Virus record (IMG/VR): IMGVR_UViG_3300027776_000002
Location: 10,414-74,413 of that record
DNA from: a virus
Lineage: Duplodnaviria; Caudoviricetes
DNA: 64,000 nucleotides
Strand: one strand, 5' to 3'
Shown here: one piece after another, positions 1,658 to 20,182 of the stretch
Layout: each line of letters starts with the position of its first letter
Position numbering within the stretch: position 1 is the first letter of the stretch
Position numbers and translations under genes: made by a program
The notes under the pieces: model-generated
The model's database searches: none
What the model was told of the DNA's origin: nothing
Seen by the model: the letters and a program-made list of their open reading frames with translations, nothing else

Positions 1658-1933
1658 ATGGCCGTCTATGTTGATGACATGCGAGCACCATTCCGTCGAA
1701 TGATCATGTGTCACATGATTGCCGACACCACCGAAGAACTCAATGCAATGGCTGACAAGATAGGTGTAGCTCGAAAATGGATTCAGTACCCTGGATCCAG
1801 TAGAGAGCACTACGATATCTGTCTATCAGCCCGAGCCAAAGCTGTTGCCGCTGGTGCCATTGAAATCACATGGCGCGAAACAGCCGAACGCACAATGGCA
1901 AAAAGGAAAGAAGAAAATGAGCAACGAAAATGA
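1658..1933 (+). CDS. DUF4031-family protein
   Basis: MAVYVDD...MCHMIADTTEELNAMA..IG....W.Q....EHYDI....RA.AV..GA matches the recalled DUF4031 pattern; GAGG SD. Confidence 0.8.
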   Translation: MAVYVDDMRAPFRRMIMCHMIADTTEELNAMADKIGVARKWIQYPGSSREHYDICLSARAKAVAAGAIEITWRETAERTMAKRKEENEQRK

Positions 1934-2279
1934 AAACCTGGTTGTTGGCTATGCAGCAAATGGTAGAGAGATTTATGCAAAGAATGAAGGATTTGTTACA
2001 CAGGCTTTCATTTTTTGCAAGAAATGCAATCTACCAATCAAATCTACAGGGGGACCAAGCACAGGTTCCATCTGTGTTAGCTGCCTCCCAAAGTACATGA
2101 TTACTCTTCTTGATAAGAAATACGATGATGAATCTATGTACGACGGGAGCCGAGATTTTGCAGAAGCATTGGACGAAAACTTTAATTCAATGCTTAAGCA
2201 CATTCCAAAAGATGAACACAATTTCTTAAAAGGAACTTTTCGAGTTCTGATCACTTGGGAACCAGACGATGACTCGTAA
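1917..2279 (+). CDS. Hypothetical protein (start moved to MSNENE)
   Basis: AAGGA upstream of ATG 1917; contains CKKC and CVSC. Confidence 0.6.
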   Translation: MSNENENLVVGYAANGREIYAKNEGFVTQAFIFCKKCNLPIKSTGGPSTGSICVSCLPKYMITLLDKKYDDESMYDGSRDFAEALDENFNSMLKHIPKDEHNFLKGTFRVLITWEPDDDS

Positions 2280-2795: not shown

Positions 2796-3165
2796 TCCGG
2801 ATCATATTCATCGCAATCCAGTGTATCTGTCAGGCGAAGAGACGATCTACTTGATCTCGGACATCCTGGATCCAAAGCCAAAAGAAGAACGTGCAACTGG
2901 ACGTACTTCTCGATTGGCGTGCAAGTACGCCGAGATGGCAATGCAATTTCCAAATACCAGAGTGATGGTTAAAGATCATTGCGATGACCGGCATACTAAT
3001 AATCGACTAATGGAAATGGTGGGGAGAATTTTGACAGCACTCAACATCGAATATCAGATGAGTGAAATTCCCATTGCAATTAGAGATCCAACTTCTTTTA
3101 CTGGTGTAAAGATGACCGACAAAGCTGGTCACTACATTATTGTTCGACCGCCACCTTCTGCTTAG
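2764..3165 (+). CDS. Hypothetical protein (start moved to MTSTES)
   Basis: GGAG SD upstream of ATG 2764. Confidence 0.6.
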   Translation: MTSTESTEDFDPDHIHRNPVYLSGEETIYLISDILDPKPKEERATGRTSRLACKYAEMAMQFPNTRVMVKDHCDDRHTNNRLMEMVGRILTALNIEYQMSEIPIAIRDPTSFTGVKMTDKAGHYIIVRPPPSA

Positions 3166-3205
3166 CCTGTTTTGCGGGTGGTTTCCCACAAGACAAGGAA
3201 AAAAC

Positions 3206-7987: not shown

Positions 7988-8016
7988 TTGACAAAGTTGC
8001 AAAGGCATATTAAGAT
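7988..8016 (+). promoter_or_regulatory. Host sigma70-type promoter for the tRNA/tmRNA cluster
   Basis: TTGACA (7988-93), 17-nt spacer, TAAGAT (8011-16). Confidence 0.75.
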
Positions 8017-8024
8017 CGTAATAA

Positions 8025-8099
8025 GTGTTCAAGAAGCTGCGTATCGGGGCAACATCTTCCCAACAGCTGATAAGATTCAGCACGCAGCTTCTTGAGCAT
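8025..8099 (+). ncRNA. Structured tRNA leader: 18-bp terminal stem with a two-hairpin head
   Basis: 8025-8042 pairs with 8082-8099 (G-U allowed); inner hairpin GCTGA/TCAGC. Confidence 0.5.
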
Positions 8100-8102
8100 T
8101 TT

Positions 8103-8179
<77 letters not shown>

Positions 8180-8183
8180 TTTA

Positions 8184-8502
8184 TGGCGTGGAACTTACTT
8201 ACGGTCGGGCCTTACTTCCCATGTGCCAGAGTTCTTAATTCCGAGCAGTTGAGGTTCTCGGACACGTCGCCTAACACAGGCCAGTGTGAGCAGAGAAGTC
8301 TGATAGTTACACTTTCCAAACCCTGCTCGGGATGTGTAATCCCAAACAAAAAAGTCGTCGAAAGTGCGTCGAGGCTCGTTCTCGTGCCGGTACGATAACC
8401 CGGTCCCGAATCCAGATCTGCGCAAGTAGTTAATCAAATCTGATGGGTCTTATGCTTCCTGCTTGCATAGCTAGGCACGCCATCGCCGGATACAGTAACC
8501 GG
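8184..8502 (+). ncRNA. Unassigned structured RNA downstream of tRNA-Pro
   Basis: Helices TCCGAG/CTCGGA, GAGCAG/CTGCTC, GGGAT/ATCCC, GCCGG/CCGGC and long-range TGGCGTG/CACGCCA; no credible ORF. Confidence 0.4.
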
Positions 8503-8522
8503 CACTGAATCTCCACTAACTT

Positions 8523-8622
8523 TCTTTTCATGCGCTGCGTATTGACGAGTAGGTACGTAGGCCATCGACCCAATGGGGCAGTACCGCGAACGACGAAAGT
8601 CAGTGCGCAGCGCATGGAGAGA
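8523..8622 (+). ncRNA. Unassigned structured RNA with a ~24-bp terminal stem
   Basis: 8523-8546 pairs continuously with 8599-8622 using several G-U pairs; inner GGTAC/GTACC and CCAT/ATGG helices. Confidence 0.45.
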
Positions 8623-8735
8623 CGGGAACTGAAAAACACTTTCTTAGGTATCCGCCATATTGAACTGGTGTTGCGGACCCAGTTGATGAACATCCCGGAC
8701 ATCGATACCAAATTAAGAATGCATCTCCATTTAAA

Positions 8736-8847
8736 TATCGGAGCGTATATGTCGTCGTTGGCAGTGAAGTTTCGATAAAGCAATAGCTGTAATTCGGTCT
8801 TAAAATAAGTTGTTTGGACGCGGGTTCGATTCCCGCCAGGTCCACCA
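8736..8847 (+). ncRNA. ssrA: Permuted tmRNA, acceptor piece (5' boundary approximate)
   Basis: T-arm GCGGG-TTCGATT-CCCGC (8820-36), acceptor strand CAGGTCC-A-CCA (8837-47). Segments 8784-90 and 8809-16 are complementary to the coding piece. Confidence 0.9.
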
Positions 8848-9012
8848 TGAAACCCTCTCGTGTCGTAAGACTCTAAGGGCGTCGAACTGCAAGAAATTGG
8901 TCTCTGCATCTTCGGATGGACATATATGAGAGACTGCTCAGTAGAGGCCATGCTTGAGCCTCTGCGTTTACAGCAAGGTGTTTCTGGCCGCAGTACGAGA
9001 GGGTTTCATCAT
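8848..9012 (+). other. tmRNA intervening sequence (165 nt, structured)
   Basis: Perfect 15-bp inverted repeat 8847-61/8995-9009; internal GUAA and UUCG tetraloop hairpins. Confidence 0.8.
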
Positions 9013-9210
9013 GGGCCTGCAAAGGTTTCGACAGGCAATGGATATAAAGAACGCAGCTGGACAGGCGACTGACCTAATCAGCGCAAAACCTTAAACGCGA
9101 ACGATGATGCGTTTGCTCCACAGCTGCGTCTCGCAGCTTAAAAGAGCATGGGGTAATGGAGAAGCCCTATAACCAAAAAGACCCCGCGTGGTCCCGGCGA
9201 CACGGGACAC
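9013..9210 (+). ncRNA. ssrA: Permuted tmRNA, coding piece with tag ANDDAFAPQLRLAA (3' boundary approximate)
   Basis: 5' end GGGCCTGCAAAGGTTTCGAC matches the tmRNA 5' consensus; GGGCCTG pairs with CAGGTCC giving G3-U70. Tag frame 9097-9141 ends LAA-stop. Confidence 0.9.
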
Positions 9211-9315
9211 TAATTTCTATGCCATCTAATGCCGAGATTGGAATACGTAAGTAGATCCGAGTGAAAGGACAGGATAGACTGGCCCTGTTTAGATGACACT
9301 TTTCCGGAGAAATCC

Positions 9316-9486
9316 ATGGCAAGAAAAGAAAAAGCTGATGCTATTCAGTGGGCAATCAATCTCGCAGATAGTCAGATGAAACGAGATGCTCGAACACCTG
9401 AAGAGCGTCATTATATTTACGAGCTGGAAGATCTAAAGAGACGATGCGAAGGTGACGGCTATCGCGCATTCAGTAAACCCACCTAA
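9316..9486 (+). CDS. Small hypothetical protein (56 aa, MARKEKADAIQWAI...), not in the ORF track
   Basis: GGAG SD; open frame to TAA 9484-86; followed by a terminator. Confidence 0.65.
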   Translation: MARKEKADAIQWAINLADSQMKRDARTPEERHYIYELEDLKRRCEGDGYRAFSKPT

Positions 9487-9505
9487 GCGGTGGGTTTTCT
9501 TTTTT
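9475..9505 (+). terminator. Rho-independent terminator
   Basis: AAACCCACC/GGTGGGTTT stem followed by a T-run. Confidence 0.8.
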
Positions 9506-9613
9506 AGGAGATGTGTGATGTTAAATCCATCATTTGTTTTTCTTACGACAAAGAATTGCTAACAAGATCACCCTCAAACCACATTGGTACTTATACGAAA
9601 GGAAACCAATTCA

Positions 9614-10585
9614 ATGAACACCAAAGCCACAGCTACCATCGTTGCTGATAGCATCTCTCCAGATGGTATTCGTCTTCGTACATTCCAACTTCGCTATTGG
9701 CGTCCAATCCATTCCGAGTTGATGACACATCGAGTCTTCTCTCGCAATGCTGGATCAAGTCGTGCACGTCCAAGTGCAAAGATCATCGAGCAAGTTCGTA
9801 CTGATCCCTGGGGTCCAATTCATTGGGGAGCAAATGAACCAGGAATGCAAGCATCGAAAGAACACAACGAGTTGGTTTCAGTTTGGGAAGACAATCGTCA
9901 GGATCCATACAAGGTTGATAAGAAAAGTGCTTGGAAAAAAGCAGCAGCAAATGCAGCTAGTCTTGCGCATTCTTTCATGCAAGCTGGATACCACAAGCAA
10001 ATCGTGAATCGTTTGCTCGAACCTTTTACATACATCGACGTTCTTGTGACAGCTACAGACTTCAACAACTGGTTTGCTTTGCGAGATCATAAGGATGCAC
10101 AGCCAGAAATCCAAGAGCTGGCTCGACTGATGAAGTTCGCATCTGATGAAAGTCTGCCAAATCCAATCCATCTTGGTGAATGGCATCTGCCGTACATCAC
10201 GGCTGAAGATTGGAAGGCAGCTGAGCGTTACTGCCAGATCAACCGAATCACTCGTGACATGCCGTCCTATCAGGAGAAATTGGAGATCGTTCGTAAAATC
10301 TCTGTTGCTCGATGTGCTCGTGTGTCTTACAAGGCATTCGATGGCACAATCGCTCCAATCGAGAAGGATCTCGAACTATTCCATCAATTACTCGTAAGTG
10401 AACCACTCCATGCAAGCCCAGCTGAGCATCAGGCAACACCTGATGTTTTGCAATATCCAGAATGGGATGTCGAGAAGCGTTGCGATGTAGAAGAGATGGT
10501 ATGGGAACACCCAGAGTTGCATGGCAATTTCCGTGGGTGGTGTCAGTACCGCAAGATGCTCCCCAATGAATTCGTGCCGGGTTAA
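9614..10585 (+). CDS. thyX: Flavin-dependent thymidylate synthase
   Basis: HSELMTHRVFSRNAGSSRA ThyX motif, NRLLEPF, ARCARVSY, HASPAEHQATP. Confidence 0.92.
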   Translation: MNTKATATIVADSISPDGIRLRTFQLRYWRPIHSELMTHRVFSRNAGSSRARPSAKIIEQVRTDPWGPIHWGANEPGMQASKEHNELVSVWEDNRQDPYKVDKKSAWKKAAANAASLAHSFMQAGYHKQIVNRLLEPFTYIDVLVTATDFNNWFALRDHKDAQPEIQELARLMKFASDESLPNPIHLGEWHLPYITAEDWKAAERYCQINRITRDMPSYQEKLEIVRKISVARCARVSYKAFDGTIAPIEKDLELFHQLLVSEPLHASPAEHQATPDVLQYPEWDVEKRCDVEEMVWEHPELHGNFRGWCQYRKMLPNEFVPG

Positions 10586-17560: not shown

Positions 17561-20182
17561 ATGGCATACTTGACCTACTCTGCAACGGAGCACGGCAACT
17601 ATCCGCTTTGCTTTTTGGTTCCAAGCATCCGCAAGGAAGAGATCCAGAAAGAGTACATCGATCCATTCGAAATCCCGCATGACGATGTGCTCGTTCTGGA
17701 TCTGCACTACTCCCAAGACAAGAAGAAGACACCAGCGGAAGAAATGAAAGAGTTCATCACCAGTGAATTGGTGCGAATTCTTGAAGACATGCAAGTGAAA
17801 TATATTGCAGTCGCAGATGCGGATTACTTCAAGCTGTTGACGAAAGTCACGAAGGTCGATGTCAATCTTGGCTACGTGTTGGACTGCGCATACGGTCCAT
17901 GGAAAGTTGCGTATATACCGAACTACCGATCAGTGTTCTATGACCCGGTGAAGGTGCGCGCAAAGATCAAGCAAGGAATGGAAGCGTTGGTTGCACACGC
18001 TTCCAATAGCTATGAAGTTCCAGGCAACGACATCATCCACTTCGCTGAATATCCTAGAACCAATAAGGAAATTGAAGCATGGTTGGAAAGACTTCTGGCG
18101 ATGGATTGTGATCTCACTATCGACATCGAAGCATTCGACCTAAAGCATCACAAGGCAGGGATTGGCACGATCACGTTCTGTTGGTCGAAGCATGAAGGCA
18201 TTGCCTTCCCAGTAGATTACGTCGAGATTCCTGGAGCCACAGAAGCACCATTCGGACGACAAGTCCGGAACGAAGAAATTCGGATTTTGCTCAGAAGTTT
18301 TTTCGAAAGATATTTGCGACGTGCAATCTATCACAGCATCAGCTATGACGTATACGACTTGATTTATCAGTTGTATATGACAAATCTTTTGGACAATGAA
18401 GGTCTACTTCAAGGCATCGAAATTCTTCTCAGAAATTGGGAAGACACGAAACTCATCACCTATCTGGCAACAAATAGCTGTGCAGGGAACAAGCTCTCGC
18501 TGAAAGATCAAGCCCAGGAGTATTCAGGCAACTATGCTCAAAGCGAAATTGCTGACATCACCCGAATTCCGTTGACAGATTTACTGAGATACAACCTCAT
18601 TGATGGACTATCTACTTGGTACGTCTATGAGAAGTATTGGCAGACAATGATCGATGATAAGCAAGAAGAGATCTACATCAATCTTTTCAAGCCAGCAACT
18701 ATCGACATCATCCAGATGCAATTGACTGGTCTGCCGGTAAATAAGCAGCGTGCGATAGAAGTCAACGCTCAGCTGACCAAAGAAGAAGAAGCACTGAATC
18801 AAAAGATCTTATCCAATCCGATCATCGAGGAATTCACGAGAGACTATCTCAACGTGGAATACGCCAACAAGATGAACGCAAAGTGGAAGAAGAAGAGGAT
18901 CACTCCACAGGAAGCAAATCAAGTTTTCAATCCGAATTCGGATCAGCAGAAACGAGCACTGTTTTTCACTTGGCTGCAGTTACCTGTGATTAATCTCACA
19001 GACAGCAAGTTGCCAAGCACGAATGGTGAAACTATCGAAGCGTTGATGAATCACACAGATCATCCGCTGTTGAAAGAATTGCTGGAATCATTCCAACTCC
19101 TGTCAATCATCAATACGCTCACGACGAATTTCATGCCGAATATCTTGACAGCTGTCGAGGGTCCAGATGGTTGGCATTACTTGTTCGGGAACTACAACCT
19201 TGGAGGGACAATTTCAGGGCGTCTCAGTAGCTCGGATCCAAATCTGCAAAATCTCCCAAGCACAGGCAAGGGGCATAAGATCAAATTGGTGTACATCAAG
19301 ATGGTGAAGAGTTGTTTCCAAGCACCACCTGGATGGATGTTCTGTGGTGTGGATTTCGCATCGTTGGAAGATCGAATCTCAGCACTTACTACGAAGGATC
19401 CGAACAAGCTCAAAGTCTATACGGATGGTTACGATGGGCATTCGCTTCGTGCATTTGCGTACTTCGGAAAGCAGATGCCGGACATCGATGGCAATTCAGT
19501 CGATAGCATCAATTCGATTCAGAAGAAGTACAAGCCCCTCCGAGATAGATCTAAAAATCCCACATTCACTTTGACGTATCAGGGCACTTGGCACGCACTT
19601 GTTAAGAAATACGGATTTACTCCAGAACAGGCAAAAGAAGTCGAAAGGCTGTATCATGTTCTATACGAAGTGAGTGATGCGTGGGTTAACAAGCAACTCG
19701 ATGCAGCTATGACCGATGGCTATATCACAGCCGCCTTCGGATTGCGACTCAGGACGCCTCTCCTGAAACAGGTAATTCGAGGCAATAGCAAGACGCCCTA
19801 TGAGGCAGAAGCCGAAGGGAGAACAGCTGGTAACGCTCTAGGCCAAAGCTGGTGCCTGCTCAACAGCCGCGCCTGGGTCGAGTTCATGCAAAAGGTCAGG
19901 CAATCAAAATTTCGATGTGCCATTCGACCATGCGCTCAAATCCACGATGCGGGATACGCCTTAGTCAAGGATGATATCGCACCACTGATGTTCATGAACG
20001 AACACTTGATCGAAGCAGTGAAGTGGCAAAACCATCCTGACATTTGGCATGACGAAGTGAAAATCGGCGGTGAACTCGGAATCTTTTATCCAAATTGGAA
20101 CACTGAAATCACCATCCCCAATTCTGCGACAGCAGATCAAATCTTCGAGATCATCGAAGACAACCTAAAGGAAAAGAAATGA
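17561..20182 (+). CDS. Family A DNA polymerase (N4 gp39-like)
   Basis: Exo I DIEAF, GRLSSSDPNLQNLP, motif A DFASLEDRI, motif B KNPTFTLTYQG, motif C QIHDA; uninterrupted. Confidence 0.96.
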   Translation: MAYLTYSATEHGNYPLCFLVPSIRKEEIQKEYIDPFEIPHDDVLVLDLHYSQDKKKTPAEEMKEFITSELVRILEDMQVKYIAVADADYFKLLTKVTKVDVNLGYVLDCAYGPWKVAYIPNYRSVFYDPVKVRAKIKQGMEALVAHASNSYEVPGNDIIHFAEYPRTNKEIEAWLERLLAMDCDLTIDIEAFDLKHHKAGIGTITFCWSKHEGIAFPVDYVEIPGATEAPFGRQVRNEEIRILLRSFFERYLRRAIYHSISYDVYDLIYQLYMTNLLDNEGLLQGIEILLRNWEDTKLITYLATNSCAGNKLSLKDQAQEYSGNYAQSEIADITRIPLTDLLRYNLIDGLSTWYVYEKYWQTMIDDKQEEIYINLFKPATIDIIQMQLTGLPVNKQRAIEVNAQLTKEEEALNQKILSNPIIEEFTRDYLNVEYANKMNAKWKKKRITPQEANQVFNPNSDQQKRALFFTWLQLPVINLTDSKLPSTNGETIEALMNHTDHPLLKELLESFQLLSIINTLTTNFMPNILTAVEGPDGWHYLFGNYNLGGTISGRLSSSDPNLQNLPSTGKGHKIKLVYIKMVKSCFQAPPGWMFCGVDFASLEDRISALTTKDPNKLKVYTDGYDGHSLRAFAYFGKQMPDIDGNSVDSINSIQKKYKPLRDRSKNPTFTLTYQGTWHALVKKYGFTPEQAKEVERLYHVLYEVSDAWVNKQLDAAMTDGYITAAFGLRLRTPLLKQVIRGNSKTPYEAEAEGRTAGNALGQSWCLLNSRAWVEFMQKVRQSKFRCAIRPCAQIHDAGYALVKDDIAPLMFMNEHLIEAVKWQNHPDIWHDEVKIGGELGIFYPNWNTEITIPNSATADQIFEIIEDNLKEKK

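Follow-up and report, generated by a model that had tools for sequence, protein, structure and literature searches.

The two halves of a circularly permuted tmRNA gene are joined by a loop, and the locus considered here raises the question of what lies in that loop and whether a sequence that would be discarded from the mature molecule can be a folded RNA in its own right. The window, a stretch of 64,000 nt, corresponds to positions 10414-74413 in a virus record of 74.4 kb that is complete and has terminal repeats. Its gene content marks the phage as N4-like and includes a 3581-aa ORF, the size of an N4-type virion RNA polymerase, and an 861-aa ORF at the position of rIIA in relatives. The ThyX protein encoded in the window is 56-62% identical to those of the Stenotrophomonas and Xanthomonas Schitoviridae Paxi, Pokken, RiverRider, PB119, Piffle, C121 and Philippe.

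ARAGORN predicts a circularly permuted tmRNA at 8755-9232 with the tag ANDDAFAPQLRLAA, and two Rfam models match it above their gathering scores, tmRNA_permuted (RF04321) at 139.7 bits (gathering score 47) and beta_tmRNA (RF01850) at 104.1 bits (gathering score 84). A sequence-only reading of this DNA had taken the 165 nt at 8848-9012 to be the intervening segment (IVS) of a permuted tmRNA, and both programs agree with that assignment; these limits follow because the encoded CCA (8845-8847) ends at 8847 and the coding piece starts at G9013. The segment thus sits where the IVS of the permuted class is found, between the encoded CCA and the 5' end of the coding piece, and it separates the two tmRNA pieces by 164-165 nt as against 26 nt in the Rfam beta_tmRNA model. 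G9015.U8841, as read from the sequence, is the G3.U70 pair of the tmRNA, which is the alanine identity pair.

Among the eight Xanthomonadaceae N4-like phages examined, the window phage alone has a tmRNA, none being found in the six relatives Paxi, Pokken, RiverRider, PB119, Piffle and C121. Its tmRNA is most closely related to the permuted tmRNAs of Menderavirus, 160-kb phages such as Marzo that infect Stenotrophomonas. When window positions 8785-9209 are compared with Marzo (extracted locus 1384-1687), both flanking tmRNA pieces are 80-90% identical, and the intervening position in Marzo holds a plain 57-nt hairpin whose stem starts at the CCA. Judged by its sequence, this likeness suggests that the tmRNA was transferred between unrelated phages of one host. 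In the window, the approximately 570 nt between tRNA-Pro and the tmRNA (8180-8750) match no protein family and resemble none of the relatives examined at the DNA level.

The features of the operon and of the IVS are listed in Table 1, and a scan for promoters and terminators is consistent with 7988-9505 forming a single polycistronic RNA operon. The stems described in the sequence-only reading, namely the 15-bp repeat, the GUAA and UUCG hairpins, the 8-bp hairpin and the ACTGC/GCAGT pairing, were all recovered in our analysis at identical coordinates. Folded in isolation, the window IVS has a minimum free energy (MFE) of −60.8 kcal/mol (z = −3.05), and none of 200 shuffled sequences was as stable. 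The P1 inverted repeat runs on through a 3x3 internal loop into the acceptor stem of the tmRNA, giving a total of 25 nt at 88% complementarity, and in the predicted fold of the precursor (8785-9060) the T-arm, the acceptor stem and P1 form one extended helix. Within P3 lies the junction J3/4, which reads AAGNNNUU. The core of P4 in the window is GUCUCU/AGAGAC at 8900-05/8929-34 with P5 nested inside it, and the 8-bp hairpin of P7 (8941-48/8958-65) includes one G.U pair. The consensus fold of the three copies of the element described below, predicted with RNAalifold, consists of two stacked three-way junctions.

Table 1. Features of the RNA operon and of the intervening segment in the window (positions are those of the window).
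Feature	Position	Strand	Remarks
Sigma-70-like promoter TTGACA-17-TAAGAT	7988..8016	+	Upstream of the tRNA-Pro/tmRNA RNA operon; consensus match only
tRNA-Pro (UGG)	8103..8179	+	ARAGORN; Rfam tRNA 67.5 bits; first recognisable RNA of the operon
tmRNA acceptor piece	8785..8847	+	Rfam tmRNA_permuted alignment, ARAGORN; T-arm 8820-8836, acceptor 3' strand 8837-8843, discriminator A8844, CCA 8845-8847
IVS of the permuted tmRNA (putative passenger RNA module)	8848..9012	+	165 nt; family core 8847-9009; covariance models R1, R2
P1 closing helix, 5' strand	8847..8861	+	Pairs with 8995-9009; perfect 15-bp inverted repeat
P2 hairpin GUC-GUAA-GAC	8862..8871	+	Contiguous with P1 5' strand; GNRA loop
J2/3 junction UCUAAGGGCGUCGA	8872..8885	+	14 nt, invariant in all three phages
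P3 5' strand ACUGC	8886..8890	+	Pairs with GCAGU 8990-8994; invariant
P4 GGUCUCU/AGAGACU, 7 bp	8899..8935	+	Encloses P5 and a conserved asymmetric loop
P5 CAUC-UUCG-GAUG	8907-8918	+	Tip variable between copies
Asymmetric loop GACAUAUAUG	8919-8928	+	Conserved in P4; family form GACA..(G)AUAYG
P6/P7 variable hairpin	8936..8974	+	Pairs 8936-38/8972-74 and 8941-48/8958-65
3' junction AAGGUGuuuCUGGCC	8975..8989	+	15 nt, invariant; family consensus AAGGUG-NNN-YUGGCC
P3 3' strand (8990-8994), then P1 3' strand (8995-9009)	8990..9009	+	No linker
tmRNA coding piece	9013..9209	+	5' G9013 is the expected RNase P site; tag reading frame 9097-9141; terminal hairpin 9191-9208

We used blastn to search 50,697 phage records for the element (E ≤ 10) and obtained only one phage, Stenotrophomonas phage Philippe, in which positions 19274-19418 are 74% identical to IVS positions 8858-8998. 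The Philippe copy sits between tRNA-Met and tRNA-Asn in an array of six tRNAs, and no tmRNA was found at this locus. It is flanked by an 8-nt direct repeat, AGTTTCAC (extracted locus 2986-2993 and 3160-3167), whose GTTTCA trailer also follows tRNA-Met in RiverRider, a phage that lacks the element; the repeat could be the footprint of an insertion or recombination event or could represent repeated RNase E-type sites.

A third copy was found with an exact 19-mer from the core, in a single 99-kb IMG/VR contig that is rated complete (UViG_3300047445_000314, element at 2220-2420). The contig has a single tRNA-like gene, which ends 2-3 nt before the element, a TTGACA-18-TATTAT promoter precedes the pair, and no tRNA-like 5' end was found after the element. 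The promoter (2048-2077) is a nearly perfect sigma-70 match with a TG motif. The tRNA-like gene itself (2118-2216; Rfam tRNA 33.4 bits) has a normal acceptor, D-arm and T-arm, and its anticodon arm is replaced by a 33-nt insert that reads ...AAACGACAACGAUGCCGCUAAUGA...; this insert looks like the tag frame of a tmRNA and has a double stop, UAAUGA, in a different frame.

Each of the three genomes carries exactly one copy of the element, which measures approximately 160-200 nt and is in every case separated by 0-7 nt from a preceding tRNA-like 3' end; in two of the three, a tRNA-like 5' end lies 3-15 nt downstream. The surroundings are otherwise largely unrelated. In the 2.2-3 kb around the element, the DNA that can be aligned with Philippe is confined to the element and tRNA-Pro, and that alignable with the 99-kb phage is the element alone. 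The sole protein match between the window phage and the 99-kb phage is a DNA polymerase at 22% identity, and as far as their sequences indicate, the three host phages share no protein except this weakly similar polymerase. Sequence comparison of the two N4-like phages shows that the element is about as conserved between them as their shared tRNA-Pro gene. The element has passed from one phage to another across unrelated groups, and in the window phage a tmRNA of Menderavirus type is apparently joined to a passenger RNA of the kind present in Philippe. All three phages encode a thymidylate synthase close to the element: ThyX is encoded downstream of it in both N4-like phages (window 9584-10585; Philippe extracted locus 6084 onward), and ThyA (680-1597) about 600 nt upstream of it in the 99-kb phage. 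This proximity may simply reflect the gene content of the early region.

That the element occurs outside any tmRNA in two phages indicates that it is an independent RNA module, and such occurrence is what the idea of a released small RNA predicts. The proposal in the sequence-only reading that the segment is a folded RNA of its own is thereby substantially borne out. Its other proposal, that the segment might be left over from whatever element brought about the permutation, is not supported, since a homologous tmRNA, that of Marzo, has the 57-nt hairpin in the same place and the two other homes of the element are not tmRNA genes. The Marzo hairpin implies instead that the segment is cargo.

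We compared the three copies for signs of selection on structure. Both sides have changed in 29 of the 48 predicted base pairs (P1, 9/13; P4, 6/7; P5, 2/5; P6/P7, 12/12), so that compensatory changes are present in P1, P4, P5, P6 and P7. Base pairing is found in 97.2% of the alignment cells, against 36-46% when the partners are slid by one to three columns, and none of 500 shuffles matched the observed value on any of five measures; these statistics rest on three sequences, from which the structure itself was predicted. P1 is 14-20 bp long in the three copies, 13 of its pairs being shared across the family, and its outer sequences are unrelated among the three phages, yet always complementary. 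The sequence of P6/P7 is likewise unrelated between copies. The 34-nt 5' core from GUGUCG to CUGCAAG and the 3' junction, in contrast to these drifting stems, are identical in all copies except at the second base of the GNRA tetraloop (GUAA in the window and the 99-kb phage, GAAA in Philippe). The stems contain G.U pairs, one of them common to the three copies, and these identify the + strand as that of the RNA.

These patterns, together with the homologues in two other phages, agree with the suggestion from the sequence alone that the RNA structure has been under selection, and the changes in P4-P7 and the invariant junctions contradict the contrary possibility that neither covariation nor conservation extends beyond the closing stem. 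The canonical tetraloops that had been offered as a sign of such selection fared unequally. The GNRA loop is indeed conserved, whereas the UUCG loop is particular to the window copy, as the Philippe loop differs and the 99-kb phage has a 39-nt insertion in P5.

Because the family has only three members and the structure was derived from them, we carried out a leave-one-out test. When only the copies of the window phage and Philippe were used to build the model, it found the third copy at 89.3 bits (E about 1e-22) over its full length (model positions 1-167), as the sole match in 180 kb, among which were the whole 99-kb phage genome and seven other phage loci. The third member of the proposed family is thus recognised by a model constructed without it.

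Further members were sought in several ways. Exact and degenerate core patterns, scanned against IMG/VR, JGI metagenomes and GTDB genomes, recovered the 99-kb contig only; the other pattern matches were chance ones and, where inspected, appeared to lie in coding sequence. These collection searches were pattern scans, which divergent members would escape, and the family stands at three members so far. Model R1 found no element in the tRNA regions of Paxi, Pokken, RiverRider, PB119, Piffle and C121, and the absence of the element from these six Xanthomonadaceae N4-like phages indicates that it is dispensable for this phage group. The neighbouring 190-aa protein, used as a query for related loci, gave no relatives. 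A search of Rfam 15, which had been proposed as a check on the sequence-only reading, returned only tmRNA and tRNA at gathering thresholds and no family for the segment, and at E ≤ 10 the region 8830-9030 gave only noise, the top match reaching 21.5 bits where the gathering score is 45.

Several other identities for the segment were considered and rejected. The Rfam result speaks against a known RNA family (riboswitch, ribozyme, Y RNA, 6S, RNase P or GOLLD/ROOL). A protein-coding reading was discarded because the ORFs that overlap the IVS have no Pfam or PHROG match and the overlapping frames in Philippe seem, by eye, to be interrupted. An N4 hairpin promoter does not fit, since the 99-kb phage shares only the weakly matching DNA polymerase and the stems covary as RNA, with G.U pairs. 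Within the fold, no pairing between the invariant junctions is consistent across all three copies, which eliminated an internal pseudoknot, and a reading of CUAAG/UAUG as an 11-nt receptor for a GAAA tetraloop failed on inspection by hand because the partner bases are already taken by P4.

The explanation that we favour, with moderate confidence, is that the IVS is a self-contained, conserved, structured non-coding RNA of approximately 160 nt that rides in phage tRNA-type transcription units and is freed by tRNA-processing enzymes. On this explanation the element fills the loop linking the two halves of the permuted tmRNA gene, and P1 would continue the tmRNA acceptor stem in the precursor, bringing the 5' and 3' ends of the element together, so that the cuts that mature the tmRNA would also free the module. 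In the window these cuts would presumably be made by RNase P at G9013 and by 3'-end processing after the CCA at 8847; more generally, they would be expected from 3' processing after the CCA or discriminator of the upstream unit and from RNase P at the next 5' end. RNase P cannot define the 3' end of the element in the 99-kb phage, because no tRNA-like 5' end follows it there. The closing helix would shield the ends of the released RNA from exonucleases, and the RNA would be stable and act in trans. The 165-nt piece is probably an independent small RNA that is set free by the enzymes with which the cell trims its tRNAs.

The invariant single-stranded junctions point to a specific partner. A phage-encoded protein partner was rejected on the basis of co-occurrence, as the window and 99-kb phages share just the weak DNA polymerase match, and the lack of a shared phage protein makes a universal host component or a small ligand the more likely partner. 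The host candidates that we regard as more likely are a tRNA or the tmRNA, the ribosome and a processing enzyme.

An alternative to such a passenger RNA is that the element acts only in cis as a spacer for processing and folding, with P1 serving as an entry point for RNase III or RNase E and insulating the tRNA-like units, and is degraded after excision. This would suit the position of the element, which always adjoins a tRNA-like 3' end on its upstream side and, in two of the three phages, a tRNA-like 5' end on its downstream side, as well as the retention of a long P1 in all three copies and the Marzo IVS, which is likewise a stem beginning at the CCA. In addition, AGUUUCAC is present on both sides of the Philippe element and fits the consensus of RNase E sites, RN↓WUU. 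In Marzo, however, a plain hairpin suffices, nothing tRNA-like follows the element in the 99-kb phage, and an invariant 34-nt core and 15-nt junction, maintained amid drifting stems and in unrelated phages, exceed what a spacer needs. We consider a role confined to spacing unlikely.

A different possibility concerns the neighbouring T-arm. The stretch GGGCGUCGAAC (8877-8887), which includes part of J2/3, could pair with the T-loop and the 3' strand of the T-stem in the tRNA-like unit that precedes the element; the complementarity covers 10 of 11 positions in the window (one of them G.U), 10 of 11 in Philippe and 9 of 11 in the 99-kb phage. With a predicted energy of −12 to −14 kcal/mol in all three phages, this is the most consistent duplex between the segments. 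It might form part of a cis switch in which the fold of the element, perhaps dependent on a ligand or protein, decides the folding and maturation of the adjoining tRNA or tmRNA, and the element does always adjoin a T-arm. However, the match lies beyond covariation testing because T-loops are nearly universal, and it may be due to chance (a rough post hoc estimate gives about 1-2% for a match of the 6-nt core). Furthermore, the minimum-energy fold of the precursor leaves the T-arm intact, and no ligand or protein candidate has emerged. We regard such a switch as very improbable. The broader idea that the element belongs to a new functional class of RNA acting on tRNA-shaped molecules, in which GGGCGUCGAAC pairs with the near-universal T-loop and T-stem either for cis gating (possibly ligand-responsive) or in trans, where the RNA would serve phages as a decoy or sponge against tRNA-targeting systems of the host, is speculative, and we give it little weight even with both forms taken together.

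It is also conceivable that the element is a selfish mobile sequence that inserts beside tRNA-like sequences and has no function for the phage. It is scattered in its occurrence (present in two N4-like phages and an unrelated one, absent from six close relatives), its ends form inverted repeats and the Philippe copy is flanked by the 8-bp direct repeat AGTTTCAC. Nevertheless, termini that differ wholly while remaining complementary, G.U pairs included, around an invariant interior are the reverse of the pattern expected of a transposon. Each genome has a single copy, the other two copies lack flanking direct repeats and no transposase or endonuclease is found nearby. We find a selfish element highly improbable; its MITE-like form was rejected because the termini covary instead of being conserved in sequence, the copies are single and the direct repeat is present at Philippe only. 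Lastly, an ordinary intervening segment with stems that arose by chance has next to no probability: G+C-balanced 165-mers often fold well and the isolated Philippe element has a z-score of merely −1.7 to −1.9, but the homologues in two other phages, the covariation and the leave-one-out detection already contradict it.

The passenger RNA that we favour can be compared with several known systems. Like other IVSs of permuted tmRNAs, the segment is bounded by the acceptor-piece CCA on one side and the coding-piece 5' end on the other, begins with a stem beside the CCA and must be removed by tRNA-processing enzymes. It differs in its length (164-165 nt against 26 nt in the beta_tmRNA model and 57 nt in Marzo) and in having a core that is conserved in phages where it lies outside any tmRNA. 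Isolated precedents for cargo in an IVS come from two permuted tmRNAs, of which one contains a tRNA-Ala and the other a repetitive element (PMC11915505); that tmRNA database paper describes no IVS whose cargo is a structured RNA other than a tRNA.

T4 offers a parallel in its rnaC and rnaD (species 1 and 2 RNAs), small stable RNAs of 139 and 119 nt whose function is unknown (PMC3014915; PMC9697503). Like the element, they are encoded directly after a tRNA gene (in T4, tRNA-Arg) on the same strand and belong to the tRNA-region transcript, and the element shares this same-strand adjacency to tRNA genes in all its copies. Model R1 applied to T4 positions 69000-74000 at E ≤ 10 revealed no homology to rnaC or rnaD, and rnaC, unlike the element, ends in a tRNA-like T-arm (CCGGGUUCGAAUCCCGG). 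The fold of rnaC (extracted locus 1909-2047, minus strand) has a z-score of −4.6, and rnaD starts 1 nt after tRNA-Arg.

GOLLD and ROOL are structured phage RNAs of unknown function that often lie beside tRNA islands (PMC12286853); one GOLLD is downstream of tRNA-Met, and tRNAs are sometimes embedded in GOLLD (PMC12286853). These RNAs, however, are 500-800+ nt long and form multimeric cages, while the element has 160-200 nt and matches neither Rfam model. Bacterial and phage Y RNAs (YrlA, RF02553), the RNAs of the Ro60/Rsr system, have ends paired in a long terminal helix and a tie to tRNA biology (PMC4201824). The ends of the element are likewise paired in a long terminal helix and it too is linked to tRNAs, but it lacks a tRNA-like T-arm/D-arm module and gave no Rfam match at E ≤ 10. 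No Ro60 gene turned up in the general scan of ORFs.

Other spacers in these tRNA arrays also show signs of structure. The spacer between tRNA-Cys and tRNA-Met in Philippe (extracted locus 2733-2909) has an MFE of −83 kcal/mol (z = −7.9), and its 3' part (CAUCGAACU.GGGGCAACC....CCACUGCCCC) appears to be conserved before a tRNA in C121 (about 2110-2230); it is probably another passenger or leader RNA. By eye, inter-tRNA spacers of RiverRider, PB119, Paxi, Pokken and Piffle look mutually homologous despite different flanking tRNAs. In our extracted loci, the look-alikes are L031 3789-3957 and L032 911-1082, L031 3404-3712 and L032 1937-2277, and the Tyr/Asn-Pro spacers of L029, L030 and L033 and L032 1441-1859. 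The tRNA arrays of N4-like phages seem to carry a set of shuffled RNA modules that are not tRNAs.

Phage tRNA regions are usually annotated as tRNAs and 'spacers', and the locus described here shows that what resembles a spacer, in this instance the discarded portion of a split tmRNA gene, can prove to be a folded RNA that is conserved. The element constitutes a small new family of structured phage RNAs in a known setting, that of passenger RNAs of tRNA operons, and we have found no earlier description of such an RNA in the discarded loop of a two-piece tmRNA. The small size, clear junctions and invariant core of the element make it tractable for probing, pull-down and genetics in the culturable phage Philippe. 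If the RNA is released and active, it would be a compact 160-nt addition to the tRNA-linked phage RNAs represented by T4 rnaC/rnaD, GOLLD and ROOL, and permuted tmRNA genes and tRNA arrays would serve phages as platforms for the expression and processing of other small RNAs.
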